Of a stretch of 64,000 bases of DNA, positions 32,046-43,698 are shown piece by piece. A program made the position numbers and the translations under genes. This DNA comes from Nitrospinaceae bacterium. GTDB taxonomy: Bacteria > Nitrospinota > Nitrospinia > Nitrospinales > Nitrospinaceae. The stretch's first letter is position 1; the number at the start of each line of letters is the position of its first letter. The DNA is taken from positions 1,600,001 to 1,664,000 of the forward strand of contig OZ250172.1 of assembly GCA_965237905.1 (NCBI GenBank), read 5' to 3'. Under the pieces are notes generated by a model. It ran no database searches. It was not told the origin of the DNA and saw only the letters and a program-made list of their open reading frames with translations.

Positions 32046-32117
32046 AGGCGCGTAGCTCAGGGGTAGAGTACTTGCTTGACATGCAAGGGGTCGGCGGTTC
32101 GAAACCGCCCGCGCCTA
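32046..32117 (+). tRNA. tRNA-Val(GAC), CCA not encoded
   Basis: Acceptor AGGCGCG/CGCGCCT; anticodon arm CTTGC-TTGACAT-GCAAG; T-arm GGCGG-TTCGAAA-CCGCC. Confidence 0.97.
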
Positions 32118-35279: not shown

Positions 35280-36290
35280 ATGATCGAAAAAATTAAGCAA
35301 TATAAAGATGACTTCAAAAACCGAATCTCCGAGATCGGAATCGGGGATGAACTGCGGCAGTTGCGCACGGACTTTCTGGGGAAAAAAGGTCTGGTGACGC
35401 AGGTGATGAAGGACATGCGCGAGCTTTCTTCCGAACAAAAAAGGGAAGTGGGCCGGCACGTCAATGAGCTTAAAAACTGGATTGAAAATGAGATTAAAGA
35501 AAAAACCGACAAACTGAAAGGCGACTCCCCGGAAGGGAGCGACCGCACCTTCGATATCACCCTGCCCGGCCGCAAGGAAGCCCGCGGCTCGCTCCACCCG
35601 ATCACCCAGGTCATGGAGGAACTCATCGCCATCTTCGTCAGCCTTGGTTTTCAGGTAGCGGAGGGGCCTGAGGTGGAATCCGATTACTACAATTTTGAGG
35701 CTCTCAACATTCCCAAAGACCATCCGGCGCGGGACATGCAGGACACGTTTTATATCGGCGGCGAAAAAGTACTGCGCACCCATACCTCTCCGGTGCAAAT
35801 CCATGTCATGGAAAAACAGCAACCGCCGCTACGCATCATCGCGCCGGGCAAAGTGTACCGCTGTGATTCGGATATTTCCCACACCCCCATGTTCCACCAG
35901 ATTGAAGGATTGATGGTGGACGAAAATGTGGCGTTCAGCGATCTCAAAGGAGTGATGAACATCTTCGTGCACCAGATCTTCGGCGAAAAAACGAAAGTCC
36001 GGTTCCGTCCCAGTTTTTTCCCGTTCACCTGCCCCAGTGCGGAAGTGGATATCCAATGTGTCATGTGCTCAGGGAAAGGATGCCGGGTCTGTTCGCAAAC
36101 CGGTTGGCTGGAAATCCTCGGTGCCGGCATGGTGGATCCGGCGGTGTTCGGAGCCGTCGATTACGATCCGGAAAAATGGACGGGGTTCGCCTTCGGGATG
36201 GGAATCGAACGCATCGCGATGCTCAAGTATGGAATCAACGATATCCGCCCGTTCTTCGAGAACGACCTGCGCTTCCTCCAGCAGTTTTAA
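35280..36290 (+). CDS. pheS: Phenylalanine--tRNA ligase alpha subunit
   Basis: HPARDMQDTF, LRTHTSPVQ, FPFT.PS.E, GFAFGMG.ER. Confidence 0.98.
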   Translation: MIEKIKQYKDDFKNRISEIGIGDELRQLRTDFLGKKGLVTQVMKDMRELSSEQKREVGRHVNELKNWIENEIKEKTDKLKGDSPEGSDRTFDITLPGRKEARGSLHPITQVMEELIAIFVSLGFQVAEGPEVESDYYNFEALNIPKDHPARDMQDTFYIGGEKVLRTHTSPVQIHVMEKQQPPLRIIAPGKVYRCDSDISHTPMFHQIEGLMVDENVAFSDLKGVMNIFVHQIFGEKTKVRFRPSFFPFTCPSAEVDIQCVMCSGKGCRVCSQTGWLEILGAGMVDPAVFGAVDYDPEKWTGFAFGMGIERIAMLKYGINDIRPFFENDLRFLQQF

Positions 36291-36297
36291 TCCAAAC

Positions 36298-36407
36298 AAG
36301 AAAACCTATTCTGACAGGATAACAGGATAAAGTCTGAATAACCCGGAACAGGGAGTAGGGAACAAGGGAAATCTCCTCATTCCCTCTCTGTGTCCTCTGT
36401 GGTGAAA
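36298..36407. repeat. Composite intergenic repeat between convergent genes
   Basis: aagaaaacc...gacaggataacaggat (inverted at 56846-56878) and cctctg(t/c)ggtgaaa (also at 56884-56897). Confidence 0.55.
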
Positions 36408-36435
36408 TTATTCTTGGGTTTCAGTATCGTGCCGG

Positions 36436-37236
36436 TCAGGGCCGTTGGGATTTTTTGACGATGTCTTTGTCGAAGTAGTTGACGGACATGCCGGCGTCGA
36501 GGACGATGCCCTGGGCGTTGATACCGCTGGCGCGTTCGCTCAGCAGAAACACCGCCGTATCGGCCACCTCCTGGGTGGTCAGCGCCTGTTTGCGCAGGGT
36601 CGACTGTTCGGCGTGCAGGTAGGAATCGATATAACCGGGAATTCCCGCCGAGGCGGAAGATTTGAGCAATCCCGCATTAACGGAATTGAACCGCACCTTT
36701 GAAAAGGCGCTGAACGATTTGGCGAGAAAGCAGAGTGAAGAATCGAGCGCGGCCTTGGCCGGTCCCATATACCCGTAGTTCTCCGCCGCCATGCGCGTCG
36801 TGGAAATGGAGATGGTCACCACCGATGCGTTGGGATCGAACCGGTCCTTGAACGCATTGGCCAGGTTGATGAGCGAGTAACAGGAAATATCCACGCACTG
36901 CAGGAAATCTTTTTTCGACGTTTCGTGAAACGGCTTCAACCCTTCGGAAAAATTGGCGAAGGCGATGGAATGCACCAGACCGTGCAGAACATCGGTCTTT
37001 GCGGATACTTCCTTTTTCAGGCGGGCGATATCTTCGTCCCGTTCCACATCGCAGACAAACGTCCGGGCGGGGTCGATGAGTTTGGCGACACTGACTTTGC
37101 GTTCCTCGGAGCGAACGCTGTATAAGACGTTGGCGTTTTCTGCCTCGAGGGTTTTGCCGATATGATAAGCGACGCTTTTTTTATTGGCGACGCCCGTCAC
37201 CAGAATGGTTTTATTTTCCAGCCCGAGGAAACTCAT
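36436..37236 (-). CDS. fabI: Enoyl-ACP reductase, divergent FabI-like
   Basis: [33 protein letters not shown]. Confidence 0.85.
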
Positions 37237-37661
37237 AGCTTCTCCTCCATGAGAATGACGGTGAACTCCACCGTCACCGCCGTCTGGCCGTCCACCTGCA
37301 CTTTGCCTTTCATATAATGTGCCGGACCGATGTTTTCCACATAGTCCGCCCTAATTTCTAAAACACTGCCGGGATATACGGGATTTTTAAACTTAACGTT
37401 TTGAATCCGCGACATGACGGGAACCTGGCCGTTGGGGGTGGGGAATTTTTCCGACATCAAAATCGCGCCGGTCTGGAACACGCATTCACAGACAAGAACT
37501 CCGGGCATGATCGGGAAATCGGGATAGTGGCCCTTGAAAAACGGTTCCTCCGGATCAATGCGCTTGCGGGTGACGATGTGGTCATCGGCTTGCTCGACAA
37601 TTTCGTCGACAAACAGAAAAGGAGGACGATGGGGTATGGCGTTCAGGATTTTTTCCTGCAT
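37233..37661 (-). CDS. fabZ: 3-hydroxyacyl-ACP dehydratase
   Basis: [26 protein letters not shown]. Confidence 0.9.
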
Positions 37662-38404
37662 TATAATCCGCCTGTGATTTCCAAAACGGTGCCGTTGACA
37701 TAGGCGGAGTCGCGATCCGCCAGAAACAACACAGCCCGTGCCACTTCATCCACAGTACCGAAGCGTTTCATGGGCACCTGACTTAGGTATTTTTTCTTCT
37801 GATCCTCGGGAAGATCGGCAATGAAATCGGTATCGATAAATCCGGGCGACACACAATTCACCGTGATATTCCGGCTGGCCACTTCCTTGGACAGGGACCG
37901 GGTAAACGCCTCCTGTCCCGCCTTGCTGGCGGCATAATTGGCCTGCCCCGCGAACCCGTACCGGCCGATGGGGGAAGTGATATTAACGATCCTTCCGTAC
38001 TTATGCCGCATCAGATGTTGCACCGCTAACTTGCTCATATGGTACGTTCCCGTCAGGTTGGTGTGGATGACATCATCCCAATCCTCAACCGACATCATCC
38101 CGACCACGGAGTCGCGCCGTATCCCGGAGTTATTCACGAGAATCTCAAACTGTTTAAAATTTTCATCCACATACTTAAAAAACTCAACGACATCGTTATG
38201 CTCGGAAACATCAAATTGCCTGAGGTGGATGCGGTCCTTGTATTTTTCGTTGACTTTTTGAAACTTTTGCGCGGCCGAGGTATCGGAACGGTAAGTGGCG
38301 ATCACTTGAGCGCCGGTGGCGAGAAATGCTTCGGCTACGCCCCGACCGATTCCGCGCGTGCCACCGGTCACAATAACAGTTTGATCTTTGAAATCGAAAT
38401 TCAC
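37661..38404 (-). CDS. fabG: 3-oxoacyl-ACP reductase
   Basis: TGGTRGIG, GQANYAASKAG, PGFIDTD; GTG start. Confidence 0.9.
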   Translation of the reverse strand: MNFDFKDQTVIVTGGTRGIGRGVAEAFLATGAQVIATYRSDTSAAQKFQKVNEKYKDRIHLRQFDVSEHNDVVEFFKYVDENFKQFEILVNNSGIRRDSVVGMMSVEDWDDVIHTNLTGTYHMSKLAVQHLMRHKYGRIVNITSPIGRYGFAGQANYAASKAGQEAFTRSLSKEVASRNITVNCVSPGFIDTDFIADLPEDQKKKYLSQVPMKRFGTVDEVARAVLFLADRDSAYVNGTVLEITGGL

Positions 38405-38480
38405 GATAAATGGATGGGAAAGAAGAAGGAAAGAGACAACAAAAACTTAACTTGTTGGATGGATTTTCCGTTCGCGCAAT

Positions 38481-39929
38481 TTATACGCTGACGGTTTCCA
38501 GTTCCGGTTTGGGTTCGCACACCGCGTGTAAGAATTTATCCACCTCATTGGCCGCAATCACTCCGTAATTGGCCGCACCCAACCAACCGGACATGATAAT
38601 CCCCACCGAACCGGCGTGGAACAACCCCGCAACCTGCTTGGGAAGATCCTTACTGATCGCGAGCCCTTCAAACTTGGTCCCGAAAGACACGCCACCCGGA
38701 TGCGCGGTGTAGCGTTTGAAGGTCATCGGGGTGGAAGCTTCCAGGTGACCTATTTTTTTGCGTACATCAGGGACGTATTTTTCCAAAGCGTCCAGCGTCC
38801 GGTCGATCAAATGTTTCTTTTTCTTATCGTATTCCTGACGGGTCAAATGAGCCCAGTCCTTGAACCGCGCATTGGTCGACGCCACAATGGAGTACATGTT
38901 CAAACCCGGCCGGGTTTCCGGATAATAAAAACTGAACGTCCGGCTGGTGGTCTCCGGTTCCAAGAGAGATGCCGAACTGAATTCCTTTTCCTGGGAGGTG
39001 AACAGCAGGTCTCCAACATTATCGATCTTCTCGCCTCTTTTAATGCCCATATACACTTGGCAACTGCTGTCATTCAACCGGACTTTTTTAACTTCATCAA
39101 GAAAATCCGGGGAAAAATGTTCGTCACTGGTCAATTTGTGTATGGTGCTTAATATATTGGAATTGGACAAAACCGTTTTGGCTGGGATCATACGCCCCTG
39201 AACTTCCACCCCTTGCACAGTTTTATCATCCACCACTACGCGATCGACCATGCAATGGGTACGGATGTCTACTCCATTTTTCAACAATTCCTTTTTCATC
39301 TTTTTGATCAATTCGCTCGTGCCGCCTTTAAAGGTGTACACCCCTTTGTCCATGAAGTTGGCAAACACGATCCCGTAAGTGATCGCCGGATCGTCCAAAG
39401 TAGAACCGTTGGCGTAAGTGATCGGTTCCATCAACAGGCGGTGAACATCGGTCCGGCCGGGAAAAAACTTTTCGAACAATTCGCGGGTGGTCATCGACAG
39501 GTCGTCGTAAAAATTCATCGCCCGCACGGTTTGGAAAAAGTCGTCGATGGTTTCTTTAACAATCCCGAACCGGTCCTTCATCAGACGGGTAAAATCGTTT
39601 TTATCAAAATTGGTCCAGAAGGAGAATTGAGGGTTGTCGAAGCGGATATTCTTGAGGCGAACGATGGAGTCGGCGATTTCCTGGGTCCAGTATTTTCGGC
39701 AGGTTTTGATCATACCGGTGGGAAAGCCGTGCAGAGAAATATCCAGAATATGGCCGCCTTTACGTTTGAACCACGTGGCCAGTCCACCCAGATTATAGTG
39801 ATGTTCGAGGATGAGGACCTTGTGTCCCAATTTGGCCAGCTTGTTGGCGGCGGTCAAACCCGCCAAGCCACTGCCAATTACAATCGTATCGTAAGCCGAC
39901 TTGATTCCCTTCAGCCAGTCTTTAGCCAT
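38481..39929 (-). CDS. Phytoene-desaturase (CrtI)-like FAD oxidoreductase B
   Basis: IGSGLAGL...LEHH..LGG, KGG...L, ASTP.TF.RYT....G...G. Confidence 0.85.
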
Positions 39930-41341
39930 TAAATTCTCCCGTATTCCGATTTGGCTTCTGCTTGCAAAATATGCAGGTTAGCCATTGAAATTCCGCTCAA
40001 TGTCGCACCAATGATACCCAAAAATCCCTGATCTGTCCCACAAATAAATAAGTTTTTTACAGGTGTCCGCCCACTCTTTATTTTGGTGGGAGAACCGTAC
40101 ACGGCACCATTGAGATGGCCGGTATATTTGAATATGGTCTTAGGCGTAAAAGAGTCAATGTATATAATATGATCGCTGAAATCGGGGAAATAAGTCAACA
40201 ACGCATTCACCCCCCGGTCCCGATACTCCTTTTTGGCCGCTCGGTAATCGGAGCGGGCCATGTCGTCCCAAAGCTTGAAATTCGCCTGGTTGGTGAGGCG
40301 GATCACCCCCTCGGACGGGGCCTCCGGGTACTGAAAGTTGCTGGGACAGCACAAAACACCACTGGTAACATCGGTCAAACCCTTGGGAACGCGGTACTTA
40401 AAGCGTGATTCGGTGCTGTAAAACACGATGCTCTTATCATATCCAACATCTTTCGGCATGCGATCCAGCACGAATATCGACTCGATAAACGACATTTGGC
40501 CGATTTCCAGGTCGGATTCTTCGACAATTCGCGGATGACACAGGCGTAAGGTCTCGACAATCCCGGCAGAAGAGAGGACCTTGTCCGCCACCAGCGTTTC
40601 GCCATTTTCCAGCTGGATGGATTGCAACTCGCCGTCTTTATGCGCGATGCTTTGCACTCCCGCGCCCATGCGTAATTCGCCGCCGAGACTCTTGTATTTA
40701 TCAACCAGCAGTTTCAGGATATAAGGCATCCCGCCGATGGGCTTGGCGAATCCTTCCATGAAAAGGCTCTTGAACATGATCACGAACTGGTAGAAATCCA
40801 TGTCGCCTTCCGCCGCGTTCCCGTAGTACATGATGGGACAATACAGCATGTCGATCAGCACCGGGTCGGTCAGGCAGGATTCCAGCACCTTGCGAGAGGA
40901 AATCCGTTGGCTGTCGTCCAGATCCAGCTCATTGAATTCGCGGATATGAGTGAGCAGTTTCTGAAACCCGTCAATTTGCTTGGGAAACTGCTCCGCGATT
41001 TCCTGTTCCATGAACTCGAATTGATTGGTGAACCGGATCGATTTGTCAGGGAAGCGGATTCCCGACATCTCCTGCGGACACAGGCGGAACTCGTCGTGCT
41101 TGAACCGCAGTTGCTTGAGAAGTTTGCCCAGCGGAGAACTACGCACACCCTTCGGCGTGTAATTGGTCATCGCGTGCAGGCCCACGTCGAACGTACGATG
41201 CTTGCGGGTATAAAAAGAATTGAGTCCACCAACCTCGACATGCTTTTCGACGATCAAAACTTTCTTCTCGAACATCGCCAGACGAATGCCCGCGGCTAAT
41301 CCGGACAGACCGGAGCCTATTATGATGGCGTCATAGTTCAT
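39929..41341 (-). CDS. Phytoene-desaturase (CrtI)-like FAD oxidoreductase A
   Basis: IGSGLSGL...EKH...GG, FDVGLH, FTP.T...[19 protein letters not shown]. Confidence 0.85.
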
Positions 41342-41431
41342 GGTCTTGATTGTAAATGAGGCTGGGGATCAAGTAAACCGCATGAGCGGCAGGGGATCAC
41401 AAAGGAAGGCCGGGGAAATCCTGAAACGGCT

Positions 41432-41695
41432 TCAACGGACCAGTTCGTCGTCTTTCAGGCGCGGAAACAGGTACTCGACACTGCTCGCCATCGACACCAG
41501 TTCCTGGTAGTCCTTTTCAGGTACTTCCAGGTTGAAGCGTTTACGCAATTCCATCACGATATCGAGGAAATCCATCGAGTCCAGATCGAACTGGTCCCGC
41601 AGTTTCTCTTCGTCTTTGATGGTGCTTAAATCTTCGTCCGGAGCAATGTCGGAGATGATATTGAGGATGGCTTGTCGAACTTGTTCCCTGGTCAT
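41432..41695 (-). CDS. Acyl carrier protein
   Basis: LDSMDFLDIVMEL...F phosphopantetheine site; AGGAG RBS. Confidence 0.92.
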   Translation of the reverse strand: MTREQVRQAILNIISDIAPDEDLSTIKDEEKLRDQFDLDSMDFLDIVMELRKRFNLEVPEKDYQELVSMASSVEYLFPRLKDDELVR

Positions 41696-41749
41696 TCGGC
41701 GCGTTCTCCTAAAGTTTGATGGTAGGTCAAAACTACCTGAATTTCAATA

Positions 41750-42988
41750 CTATTTTTGATATTTGCGAACGATCAAAACGGAATTAATGCCGAACATTCC
41801 GAACGAATTGTTCATGATAATACTCACGTTGTCCAGCAGTTCCGGCGTATTCGCCACCAGATTATTGAGCTGGCATTCCGGGTCGATGGTGTCGAGGTTG
41901 ATGGTCGGGTGGACATAGCCATCCTCAAAGGCGGGCAGATTGCCGGTGAGCTCCAACGCCCCCGCCGCGCCCATGGTGTGCCCCATGTAACTCTTTGTAT
42001 TATTGATCCGTGTGCGGCCCTCCATGCCGAACACCTGGCGTACTGCCTTGCACTCCTGGATATCGCCCAGCTGAGTGGCGGTGGCATGGGTGTTGAGGAT
42101 GTCGATATCCTCCGGTTTCAATCCGGCCCGGTCCAGCGCCAGCCGCATGCATTCGGCCTGCCGCCCCGGCTCCGGTAGGATATAATCGTAAGCATCTGAA
42201 TTACTGGCGTATCCGATAATCTCTCCATAGATTTGAGCGCCCCTTGCCTCCGCATCCGGCAGGCGTTCGAGAGTGTAGACACACCCGCCTTCTGAACAGA
42301 CGATGCCGTTGCGGTTCTTGTCAAACGGACGGCTCGCCTTGGTCGGGTCTGCGTGCTCGGCCAGTGCGCCCTCGCTCTTGAAGCTGGCAAAAATGCCGAA
42401 GGTGTGAATGCTTTCGGAGACGCCGCCCGCCAGAGCCATATCGACCTCATTCAGCCGCAACATCTGGGCTCCCTGGATGATGCCCAGGTTGCCCGCCGCA
42501 CAGGCCGCGCCAATGGCGTAATGCGGCCCGGTGATGCCCATGTTCAATGTCACCTCGCCCGCCGGGTTGTTGGCCACCGTCCGTGGGTTGTGGTGGTGCG
42601 ACCAGTACTTGGTGTCGTAACCGTACTGGCTGATGGCGTAGACCTCGTTCTCCGTCTCCACGTTGCCGTGCTCGGTGGTGCCTAGATAGACGCCGACGCG
42701 CGATTTGTCGACCGTATCGAACGCGATGCCGGAATCTGCCACCGCCTCCTGCGCACAATAGATGGCAATCGATCCTGCCCGTGTGCCGCGTCGCAGGCTC
42801 TTCTTTTTTTGATACTTGAGCTCGTCGAAATCGCACACCCCGGCCAGCACCGCGCCCATAAAACGGGTCTCAAAGTGGGTGACGCCAGACCGGCCCTCCA
42901 GCAGACTCTTGCGGAATTCCTTCAGCGAGTTGCCGTTGGGGGCCGTCAGGCCGATCCCTGTAATGACAATACGGTCCTCAAGCGGCAT
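41750..42988 (-). CDS. fabF: Beta-ketoacyl-ACP synthase (FabF/FabB family)
   Basis: VITGIG; AACAAG (Cys); THATAT (His); TKS.MGH (His); NNSFG.FG. Confidence 0.9.
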   Translation of the reverse strand: MPLEDRIVITGIGLTAPNGNSLKEFRKSLLEGRSGVTHFETRFMGAVLAGVCDFDELKYQKKKSLRRGTRAGSIAIYCAQEAVADSGIAFDTVDKSRVGVYLGTTEHGNVETENEVYAISQYGYDTKYWSHHHNPRTVANNPAGEVTLNMGITGPHYAIGAACAAGNLGIIQGAQMLRLNEVDMALAGGVSESIHTFGIFASFKSEGALAEHADPTKASRPFDKNRNGIVCSEGGCVYTLERLPDAEARGAQIYGEIIGYASNSDAYDYILPEPGRQAECMRLALDRAGLKPEDIDILNTHATATQLGDIQECKAVRQVFGMEGRTRINNTKSYMGHTMGAAGALELTGNLPAFEDGYVHPTINLDTIDPECQLNNLVANTPELLDNVSIIMNNSFGMFGINSVLIVRKYQK

Positions 42989-43361
42989 AGATAAGATCCA
43001 TAGGGTGCAAGTGTCGGGGATGGTTTGGATTCAAGCCCTGGACGGGTTGGCGTTGAACAACCAAGCGAAGCCAAAACTTCGGAATTAAGGAATTTAGCAT
43101 AAAAAGGGAGGGTTTGGAAGAGGGCCGGGGTCGTTCAAAAATATCGGATGAGATTATTTTTACACAGCAATGGCTTCTACCGAATGCTATTGATATAGGC
43201 AGGCTTGGAGGGCTTGTCGCCAAAAGTGTCAAAAGAAACAGGTATTTCCGGCGTTTCAGACGTATATTATTAGAATACAGGATGGTTGGGGGGCATTGCT
43301 TTAAGGACCTTTGAGCCGAAACCCTGCCGGGTTTGCCAGGCCGTTTCAATGGAGGTGTCCC

Positions 43362-43553
43362 ATGGGACTGACTTATGATGTTTTGAAGACCAAGGTAAAA
43401 TCTGAAGGCAAGTTCACGCTGGAAGAGTTGACGTGGATGCTGGACAAAATGAAGGAAATGGACCGCACACTCGACTCCCTCAAAACCACTATGGAGGAGC
43501 GATTGAGCCGGATTGAAAGCAAGGACGACGATCACATTCCGGGTGGTATTTAA
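43362..43553 (+). CDS. Small hypothetical coiled-coil protein, 63 aa
   Basis: GGAGGT RBS 6 nt before ATG 43362; heptad-like pattern. Confidence 0.6.
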   Translation: MGLTYDVLKTKVKSEGKFTLEELTWMLDKMKEMDRTLDSLKTTMEERLSRIESKDDDHIPGGI

Positions 43554-43680
43554 GCCTCTCCTCCCCGGAGGGGGAACTGGCTGACCCTCTAACGAGGGAG
43601 GAAACTTGCTGATGGTTGACGGCAAAAATGGCTCGTGGAGCGCAATTCACGGTTTTAAATTACCAGCGGAGGTACCCCGC

Positions 43681-43698
43681 CCAGCGTCGTCACGCTGG
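43681..43698 (-). repeat. Post-stop palindrome, copy 2
   Basis: Minus strand CCAGCGTGACGACGCTGG, 5 nt after the ispF stop. Confidence 0.6.

Follow-up and report, generated by a model that had tools for sequence, protein, structure and literature searches.

A predicted dissociated fatty acid synthase with two CrtI-like flavoenzymes as a candidate stand-in for Pfa upstream of OleABCD

Described systems closest to the cassette

In Shewanella, formation of the hydrocarbon C31:9 depends on the polyunsaturated fatty acid (PUFA) synthase Pfa, and the product is predicted to arise from two 16:4n-3 chains (PMC6463001, PMC4882568). In Geobacter bemidjiensis the same hydrocarbon comes from a pfa-like cluster of type I (PMC3098273), a kind of cluster also described for planctomycetes. 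Here we describe a seven-gene cassette in a 64,000-nucleotide stretch of DNA from a Nitrospinaceae bacterium (assembly GCA_965237905.1, contig OZ250172.1, positions 1,600,001 to 1,664,000 of the forward strand; hereafter the window). With moderate confidence, based on sequence comparison, we read it as a second, dissociated fatty acid synthase (FAS) with its own acyl carrier protein (ACP), which would make a polyunsaturated chain (predicted to be C16:4n-3-like) for OleABCD in the place of Pfa.

The synthesis of PUFAs of this kind is described as needing two different isomerisations, trans-2 to cis-2 and trans-2 to cis-3 (PMC4882568, PMC6463001). As far as the available sections of the reports go (PMC6463001, PMC3098273, PMC4882568), the likeness between Pfa-OleABCD and the cassette lies in the slot upstream of OleA, the phyla concerned, oxygen-independent building on a private ACP, and the presumed product class. 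The machinery differs: the cassette consists of single-domain enzymes with one ACP, without multidomain PfaA/PfaC carrying tandem ACPs and without similarity at the level of PfaA. It has a FabZ-type dehydratase, FabI in the place of PfaD and, where Pfa has FabA-like dehydratase domains, a pair of CrtI-fold flavoproteins.

A second precedent is Desulfotalea psychrophila, which makes C31:8 (4%) and C31:9 (1%) and, in the sections of the 2009 report at hand, is credited with no polyketide synthase (PKS)-type PUFA genes (PMC2649909). Its PF01593 genes DP1860, DP2405 and DP2406, the last two consecutively numbered, lie in type II FAS (FASII) clusters, and a novel anaerobic way to PUFAs was put forward in that report (PMC2649909). 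The extended FASII clusters of D. psychrophila and Kuenenia stuttgartiensis likewise hold PF01593 "phytoene dehydrogenase-like" genes; in those sections, however, the seven-gene set is not singled out, Ole is not mentioned, and desaturation is expected to proceed with help from radical SAM enzymes, which the cassette lacks (PMC2649909). The notion that FASII enzymes could make PUFAs anaerobically goes back to 2009; an exclusion test and a specific mechanism are added here. The cassette bears on a question left open at that time, namely how an anaerobe without Pfa makes C31:8 and C31:9 and what role is played by the phytoene dehydrogenase-like genes in FASII clusters, the same family being found in the ladderane candidate cluster.

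Anammox ladderane cluster I (kuste3603-3608) shares with the cassette a special ACP, FabZ, FabF and a phytoene dehydrogenase homologue. In the available text it is defined by a radical SAM enzyme and a catalytically inactive FabF paralogue (PMC10139942, bioRxiv 10.64898/2026.05.19.726425), whereas the cassette has neither the inactive FabF partner nor the B12 radical SAM enzyme and carries two flavoenzymes, FabG and FabI. The first-pass annotation of the window had cited anammox ladderane candidate clusters as known examples of such pairing; the Ole pathway and the Pfa synthase offer the better context. The carotenoid enzymes CrtI, CrtD and CrtISO (4DGK, 4REP) resemble the two flavoenzymes in fold and in FAD-binding motif, but identity is 17-18%, the curated hidden Markov model (HMM) cut-offs are unmet, no carotenoid synthase lies near the cassette, and the predicted substrate is an acyl-ACP. 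Type II PKSs for polyenes (aryl polyene and ishigamide type) pair a ketosynthase (KS) with a chain length factor (CLF), whereas the cassette has one KS only, plus an enoyl reductase. Taken by sequence, the cassette appears to work like Pfa upstream of Ole, yet it stands outside the Pfa family, ladderane cluster I, the carotenoid enzymes and the KS-CLF systems.

Organization and conservation of the cassette

The first-pass annotation described seven same-strand genes with overlapping stops and starts, and all seven frames are indeed found on the minus strand of the window, flanked by ispF and pheS (lengths in amino acids, aa):

41750-42988, minus strand: KS, a divergent FabF-like ketosynthase; 412 aa; Cys-His-His intact; polar acyl-pocket segments
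41432-41695, minus strand: ACP, a dedicated acyl carrier protein; 87 aa; DSM motif; basic RKR after helix II
39929-41341, minus strand: flavoenzyme A; 470 aa; CrtI/CrtISO fold; predicted cis-bond-installing enzyme 1
38481-39929, minus strand: flavoenzyme B; 482 aa; CrtI/CrtISO fold; paralogue of A; predicted cis-bond-installing enzyme 2
37661-38404, minus strand: FabG-like 3-ketoacyl-ACP reductase; 247 aa; Y157/K161
37233-37661, minus strand: FabZ-type dehydratase, not FabA; 142 aa; His45/Glu59
36436-37236, minus strand: divergent FabI enoyl-ACP reductase; 266 aa; Y154/K161; the genome's only FabI-like gene

Overlaps of one base occur at 39929 and 37661, and one of four bases at 37233-37236. 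The catalytic residues that had been reported as intact are confirmed: C163/H301/H337 of the KS, H45/E59 of FabZ, Y157/K161 of FabG and S40 of the ACP (in DSM), to which Y154/K161 of FabI can be added. Apart from those of FabG, for which no such count applies, they are invariant, the query counted, in 51 aligned sequences for the KS, 67 for FabZ, 56 for FabI and 62 for the ACP. The residues of a type II FAS elongation cycle (those of the KS, the ketoreductase YxxxK, the dehydratase His/Glu, the enoyl reductase Tyr/Lys and the ACP serine) thus each reside on a separate protein. Between pheS and ispF there is no fabD, fabH, plsX, ligase or radical SAM gene and no second KS that could serve as a CLF, in agreement with the earlier description. 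The GC content of the genes (0.49-0.59) is close to that of the genome (0.50).

Flavoenzyme B was used as the marker gene for the cassette. It is present in 40 of 41 Nitrospinales genomes, the lone miss being an assembly gap. The nearest named records are Nitrospinaceae metagenome-assembled genomes (MAGs), in which B is 93-96% identical, and identity in other phyla is 54-68%; named carriers include Dehalococcoidia, Phycisphaerae, Opitutales and Desulforhopalus. Among cultured organisms, Nitrospina gracilis has a KS homologue with 82-83% identity, and B homologues occur in Desulforhopalus singaporensis and Desulfopila aestuarii. Candidates at E <= 1e-100 number at least 7989 for the KS and at least 7991 for B, and the family is therefore large. 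Gene order was counted in the best 80 loci of 256 confirmed relatives, ignoring unrelated intervening genes, and many of these contigs end inside the cassette. A adjoins B in 71 of the 80 loci; 60 keep ACP-A-B, and 29 keep all seven genes in order. Such retention argues that the arrangement is not due to chance, and it answers positively the question of whether the flavoenzymes are syntenic elsewhere, since ACP-A-B order is kept across several phyla. The annotation knew of no characterized product for such clusters, and literature searches likewise showed no characterization.

Some individual loci depart from this picture. In Opitutales (L125:413-1146, L039) the cassette is split, with two small open reading frames (ORFs) that look toxin-antitoxin-like by eye between ACP and A, and with B on another contig. 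Two labels are doubtful (L090, L091): one belongs to a cassette on a 6.7-kb contig attributed to an Asgard archaeon, the other to a "Myxococcota" MAG that genome search placed in the Desulforhopalus family.

Association with OleABCD

Judged by genomic association, the cassette appears to partner OleABCD, as Pfa does. Outside Nitrospinota, the cassette flanks hold OleA-, OleB-, OleC- and OleD-like genes. Several loci, L228 and L230 among them, combine the cassette and the ole genes in one operon, and L229 has all four ole genes between A and B; in some Dehalococcoidia loci only oleA stands beside the cassette. Co-occurrence was assessed in 201 Planctomycetota and 251 Desulfobacterota genomes. 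OleA is encoded in 51 of the 53 cassette genomes (38/38 in Planctomycetota, 13/15 in Desulfobacterota), and oleA lies no more than 12 kb from B in 19/38 and 7/13 genomes of these phyla, respectively.

In the genome holding this window (G000, with C1 denoting its contig coordinates), ole genes are found at three loci away from the cassette: oleAB at C1:35478-37407 (oleA 35478-36520), oleC at 541126 and oleD at 85717. The oleA frame is split by a single missing base (L231:5479-6524), which is present in contigs of two public runs (representing no more than a single sample, from which this DNA may have come) and in 3/3 aligned relatives; the split is probably an assembly error. OleA is intact in 38/40 relatives, the two misses being 72% complete. 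An oleC gene has been noted before in a Nitrospinaceae MAG, and the passages concerned name no precursor route (PMC10176705).

Near-exclusion with Pfa

The distributions of the cassette and Pfa among OleA genomes are close to complementary. In the 70 such genomes of Planctomycetota, the cassette occurs without Pfa in 38 and Pfa without the cassette in 30, while none has both and two have neither; the 26 of Desulfobacterota comprise 12 with the cassette only, 13 with PfaA-like proteins only (12 above 850 bits) and one with both. Three OleA genomes are without a strong marker: G491 encodes OleC and the cassette KS (70% identity), while in G300 and G211 OleC is missing and the "OleA" sits on a long branch. 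No PfaA over the cut-off was found in G000 (best 126 bits) or in the three relatives tested. The alternating clusters in the sampled genomes are probably, by analogy, of the G. bemidjiensis pfa-like type. Within the 81 genomes of the Desulforhopalus family, to which the NCBI taxonomy also assigns D. psychrophila, B is present in 79, OleA in 77 and PfaA over the cut-off in one. The near-exclusion suggests that the cassette and Pfa do the same job.

Separately, one Desulfocapsaceae-family genome, G507 (loci L236, L237), carries canonical pfaABCD, the cassette and OleA.

The flavoenzymes and the modified core enzymes

Flavoenzymes A and B both match PF01593 and have the CrtI fold with the FAD-binding GxGxxG motif. 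Their best NCBIfam model is carotenoid isomerase, at 90.5 and 97.7 bits against a cut-off of 586.9, and no carotenoid-family HMM scores them above 98 bits (cut-offs 238-640). The predicted structure of A (pLDDT 90.3) is closest to 4REP and 4DGK (TM 0.74 and 0.57, 17-18% identity) and that of B (pLDDT 84.9) to 4REP (TM 0.69). The two are paralogues (25% identity, profile E 2e-40), and both show invariant motifs that set one apart from the other. Isomerisation by CrtI and CrtISO in the absence of oxygen, with FAD in its reduced state, is described in the available part of one study (PMC3382138).

Two side observations concern these proteins. Genome G095 has two further orphan copies of B (53% identity; L140:7335-8789, L141:7324-8796) with no cassette gene nearby, and singleton fusions (P0241, P0243 and P0244: two A-B, one B-FabI) could be sequencing read-throughs.

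The unusual KS segment pointed out earlier is present as WSHHHNPRTVANNP at KS 129-142. Two polar stretches, TEHG (105-108) and WSHHHNPRT (129-137), contain residues (T105, E106, H107, H131, H132 and N134) that are invariant in 51/51 aligned sequences, and TEHG and HHxNP take the place of hydrophobic stretches corresponding to 1E5M residues 111-115 and approximately 132-142. The equivalent region lines the acyl tunnel of anammox FabF (tunnel residues 110-112 and 135-139) in the available text of a preprint (bioRxiv 10.64898/2026.05.19.726425). In FabI, the substrate-loop region reads ISISTT, and I144 is kept in 56/56 sequences in place of a conserved Tyr, the residue of S. aureus FabI. The ACP carries R51-K52-R53 in 62/62 sequences, is 30% identical to the genome's AcpP, and differs from it in that the housekeeping protein is acidic at the same place; the invariant RKR fits a carrier insulated from housekeeping enzymes. 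The best structural database match of FabZ is 7QV0/8AYB-C (E 1e-24), which we take to be anammox FabZ. The changes in KS, FabI and ACP fit unusual intermediates without specifying them.

Relation to housekeeping fatty acid synthesis

A separate housekeeping locus, plsX-fabH-fabD-fabG-acpP-fabF, is located at C1:195.7-201 kb of G000, and the genome has a second fabZ; all of these genes score above curated cut-offs. By comparison, the cassette KS reaches 329 bits against an equivalog FabF cut-off of 493.75, the ACP at most 41.5 against 66-71, and FabI at most 173 against 362; only FabZ (NF000582) and the FabG, in one subfamily, pass. The profile search of the genome found no fabA over the cut-off, and there is one membrane desaturase. 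The proposal of a dedicated elongation set with its own ACP is thereby upheld, the set being non-housekeeping and syntenic across phyla.

The term "stand-alone", by which the synthase had first been described, does not hold. Neither FabD nor FabH is encoded in the cassette, which so depends on a FabD from elsewhere. The cassette FabI is the sole FabI-like gene in G000 and in 3/4 other complete Nitrospinales genomes (the fourth, G013, has a second weak match of 70 bits), and FabK was found in 0/5 complete Nitrospinales genomes. It follows that this FabI probably does double duty in housekeeping synthesis. Some Dehalococcoidia copies of the cassette bring their own phosphopantetheinyl transferase and FabD.

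Planctomycete cassettes (loci L221-L226) often show no FabG gene, and a housekeeping reductase probably fills in. A third FabF-like KS of G000 (467 bits, just below the cut-off) lies at C1:1543907-1547340, upstream of a 537-aa ORF without a Pfam match.

Proposed function

The components of the proposal carry different weights. That the cassette feeds the Ole pathway is highly probable. It is likely that the flavoenzymes act on the ACP-bound chain, and fairly likely that this chain is polyunsaturated; that they act by isomerisation rather than redox chemistry is a somewhat less than even bet. The earlier suggestion of a modified or unsaturated chain on its own ACP is partly supported: the dedicated set stands, and the product class is narrowed by inference to a polyunsaturated chain for OleABCD.

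In the mechanism envisaged, malonyl units would come from housekeeping FabD, and KS, FabG and FabZ would generate trans-2-enoyl-ACP in every cycle. Over a three-cycle repeat, one flavoenzyme would convert trans-2 to cis-3, the other would convert trans-2 to cis-2, and FabI would reduce the third intermediate. Like CrtISO, both flavoenzymes would operate on reduced FAD in the absence of oxygen, and drawing the kinked chains into further cycles would fall to the altered KS. Two finished chains would next be condensed by OleA and processed by OleD, OleC and OleB to C31:9 or C31:8. One isomerisation is allotted to each flavoenzyme because two different isomerisations are needed, there is no FabA-type dehydratase, and the cassette invariably has a pair of flavoenzymes, whose family can isomerise with FAD in its reduced state.

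A broader and decidedly more tentative version would make the cassette a third route to methylene-interrupted PUFAs beside aerobic desaturases and Pfa, with A and B as isomerases of enoyl-ACP (one acting from trans-2 to cis-3, the other from trans-2 to cis-2), programming by a remodeled KS, and the ocean's main nitrite oxidisers as a source of C31 polyene hydrocarbons. The cassette might also be OleA's older partner, because the clade of Pfa-linked OleAs lies among those linked to the cassette, although the root of the tree is uncertain. If the proposal is true, a small, modular, oxygen-independent synthase for PUFAs would be at hand, along with a new kind of flavin chemistry on acyl-ACP, and a source of C31 polyenes would be assigned for planctomycetes, sulfate reducers and Nitrospinota.

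Several points weigh against this interpretation. In the parts of the literature available, known CrtI-family enzymes use membrane hydrocarbons, not ACP thioesters, and their isomerisation runs the opposite way, from cis to trans (PMC3382138); when homologues of the flavoenzyme family from anammox bacteria were tried in E. coli, no new fatty acids appeared, and several of the proteins went undetected there (PMC4790861). The strongly polar KS pocket is not accounted for by a plain hydrocarbon chain. We infer that DP2405 and DP2406 are probably A and B, and D. psychrophila is not named among the 120 B matches listed. Two cassette genomes, G054 and G095, are without OleA or OleC, so that Ole cannot be the sole outlet. 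Both systems occur in two genomes (G507 with full pfaABCD, and G270 with a 2728-aa PKS above the PfaA cut-off), and only two to three PfaA candidates were scored per genome. Finally, in a quick tree of 87 OleAs, a single clade (SH-aLRT 100) takes in 34/36 Pfa-linked proteins from both phyla, with just two changes of label; the independent events are therefore few, and the Fisher values for the exclusion (2.7e-6 and 9e-18) overstate independence. The same tree pattern indicates two modules traveling as units.

In both G095 and G054, a GT-B glycosyltransferase gene lies beside fabI (L139:3197-4501, L142:5415-6722) and is possibly a glycolipid outlet.

Alternative explanations

The cassette could make some other special chain for OleA, such as a conjugated polyene or a mono- or di-unsaturated, oxygenated or polar-tailed chain. 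The flavoenzymes would then be dehydrogenases, RetSat-like reductases or hydratases, and another olefin, a ketone or a beta-lactone would be produced instead of C31:9. This explanation, unlikely as we judge it, would accommodate the invariant Glu, His, Asn and Arg that replace hydrophobic residues in the KS segments lining the FabF acyl tunnel. The separation of cassette-linked OleAs from the Pfa-linked clade, the glycosyltransferase in place of ole in two genomes, and the Dehalococcoidia loci with oleA as the only neighboring ole gene would also be in keeping with it. The near-exclusion with Pfa speaks for a shared job instead, and the sole lipid-analyzed member of the family in which the cassette is nearly universal makes C31:8 and C31:9 without Pfa, according to the sections of the report at hand (PMC2649909).

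Alternatively, the cassette might feed OleABCD with the flavoenzymes acting only after condensation, on the membrane-borne C31 olefin, through stepwise desaturation or isomerisation, like that of phytoene by CrtI, that yields a conjugated polyene. The precedent is CrtI itself, described in the accessible text as membrane-peripheral, active on a hydrocarbon and able to use quinones without oxygen (PMC3382138). The best structural matches of A and B are carotenoid desaturases, and the C31:8/C31:9 mixture of D. psychrophila could be read in the same way. However, the position of A and B between ACP and FabG/FabZ is maintained, with ACP-A-B kept in 60/80 loci, while ole genes are often distant; G095 and G054 keep both flavoenzymes without OleA or OleC; Pfa-Ole genomes manage without them; and a private FAS would be superfluous if plain chains sufficed. 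We consider action at the olefin stage quite improbable.

An oxygen-independent route to ordinary membrane monounsaturates, replacing FabA/FabB or FabX, with the ole link secondary, would explain the lack of fabA in G000, the sole FabI-like gene and the presence of the marker in 40/41 Nitrospinales genomes. It is very hard to reconcile with a membrane desaturase (PF00487) in 35/41 Nitrospinales genomes (28/28 of those at least 90% complete), with the lack of a B match in 236/251 Desulfobacterota genomes, or with OleA in 51/53 cassette genomes. Chance insertion of carotenoid or hopanoid genes into a fab operon, suggested by the "phytoene desaturase" family labels and the genome's single squalene/phytoene synthase gene, is already disfavored and scarcely credible, since that gene lies about 0.9 Mb from the cassette, carotenoid HMM scores fall far under the cut-offs, and stop/start coupling and cross-phylum gene order tie A and B to the ACP.

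Flanking sequence and minor observations

The spacer between KS and ispF contains an 80-aa ORF on the plus strand (window 43311-43553) with no Pfam or NCBIfam match. The other end of the cassette meets pheS (window 35280-36290) head-on, and pheS is without pheT after it. A tRNA-Val(GAC) gene lies at window 32046-32117, upstream of thrS. Both cassette flanks (window 36299-36370 and 43557-43687) match short dispersed repeats with many copies in genome G002, and these may be the cause of the assembly break in that genome.

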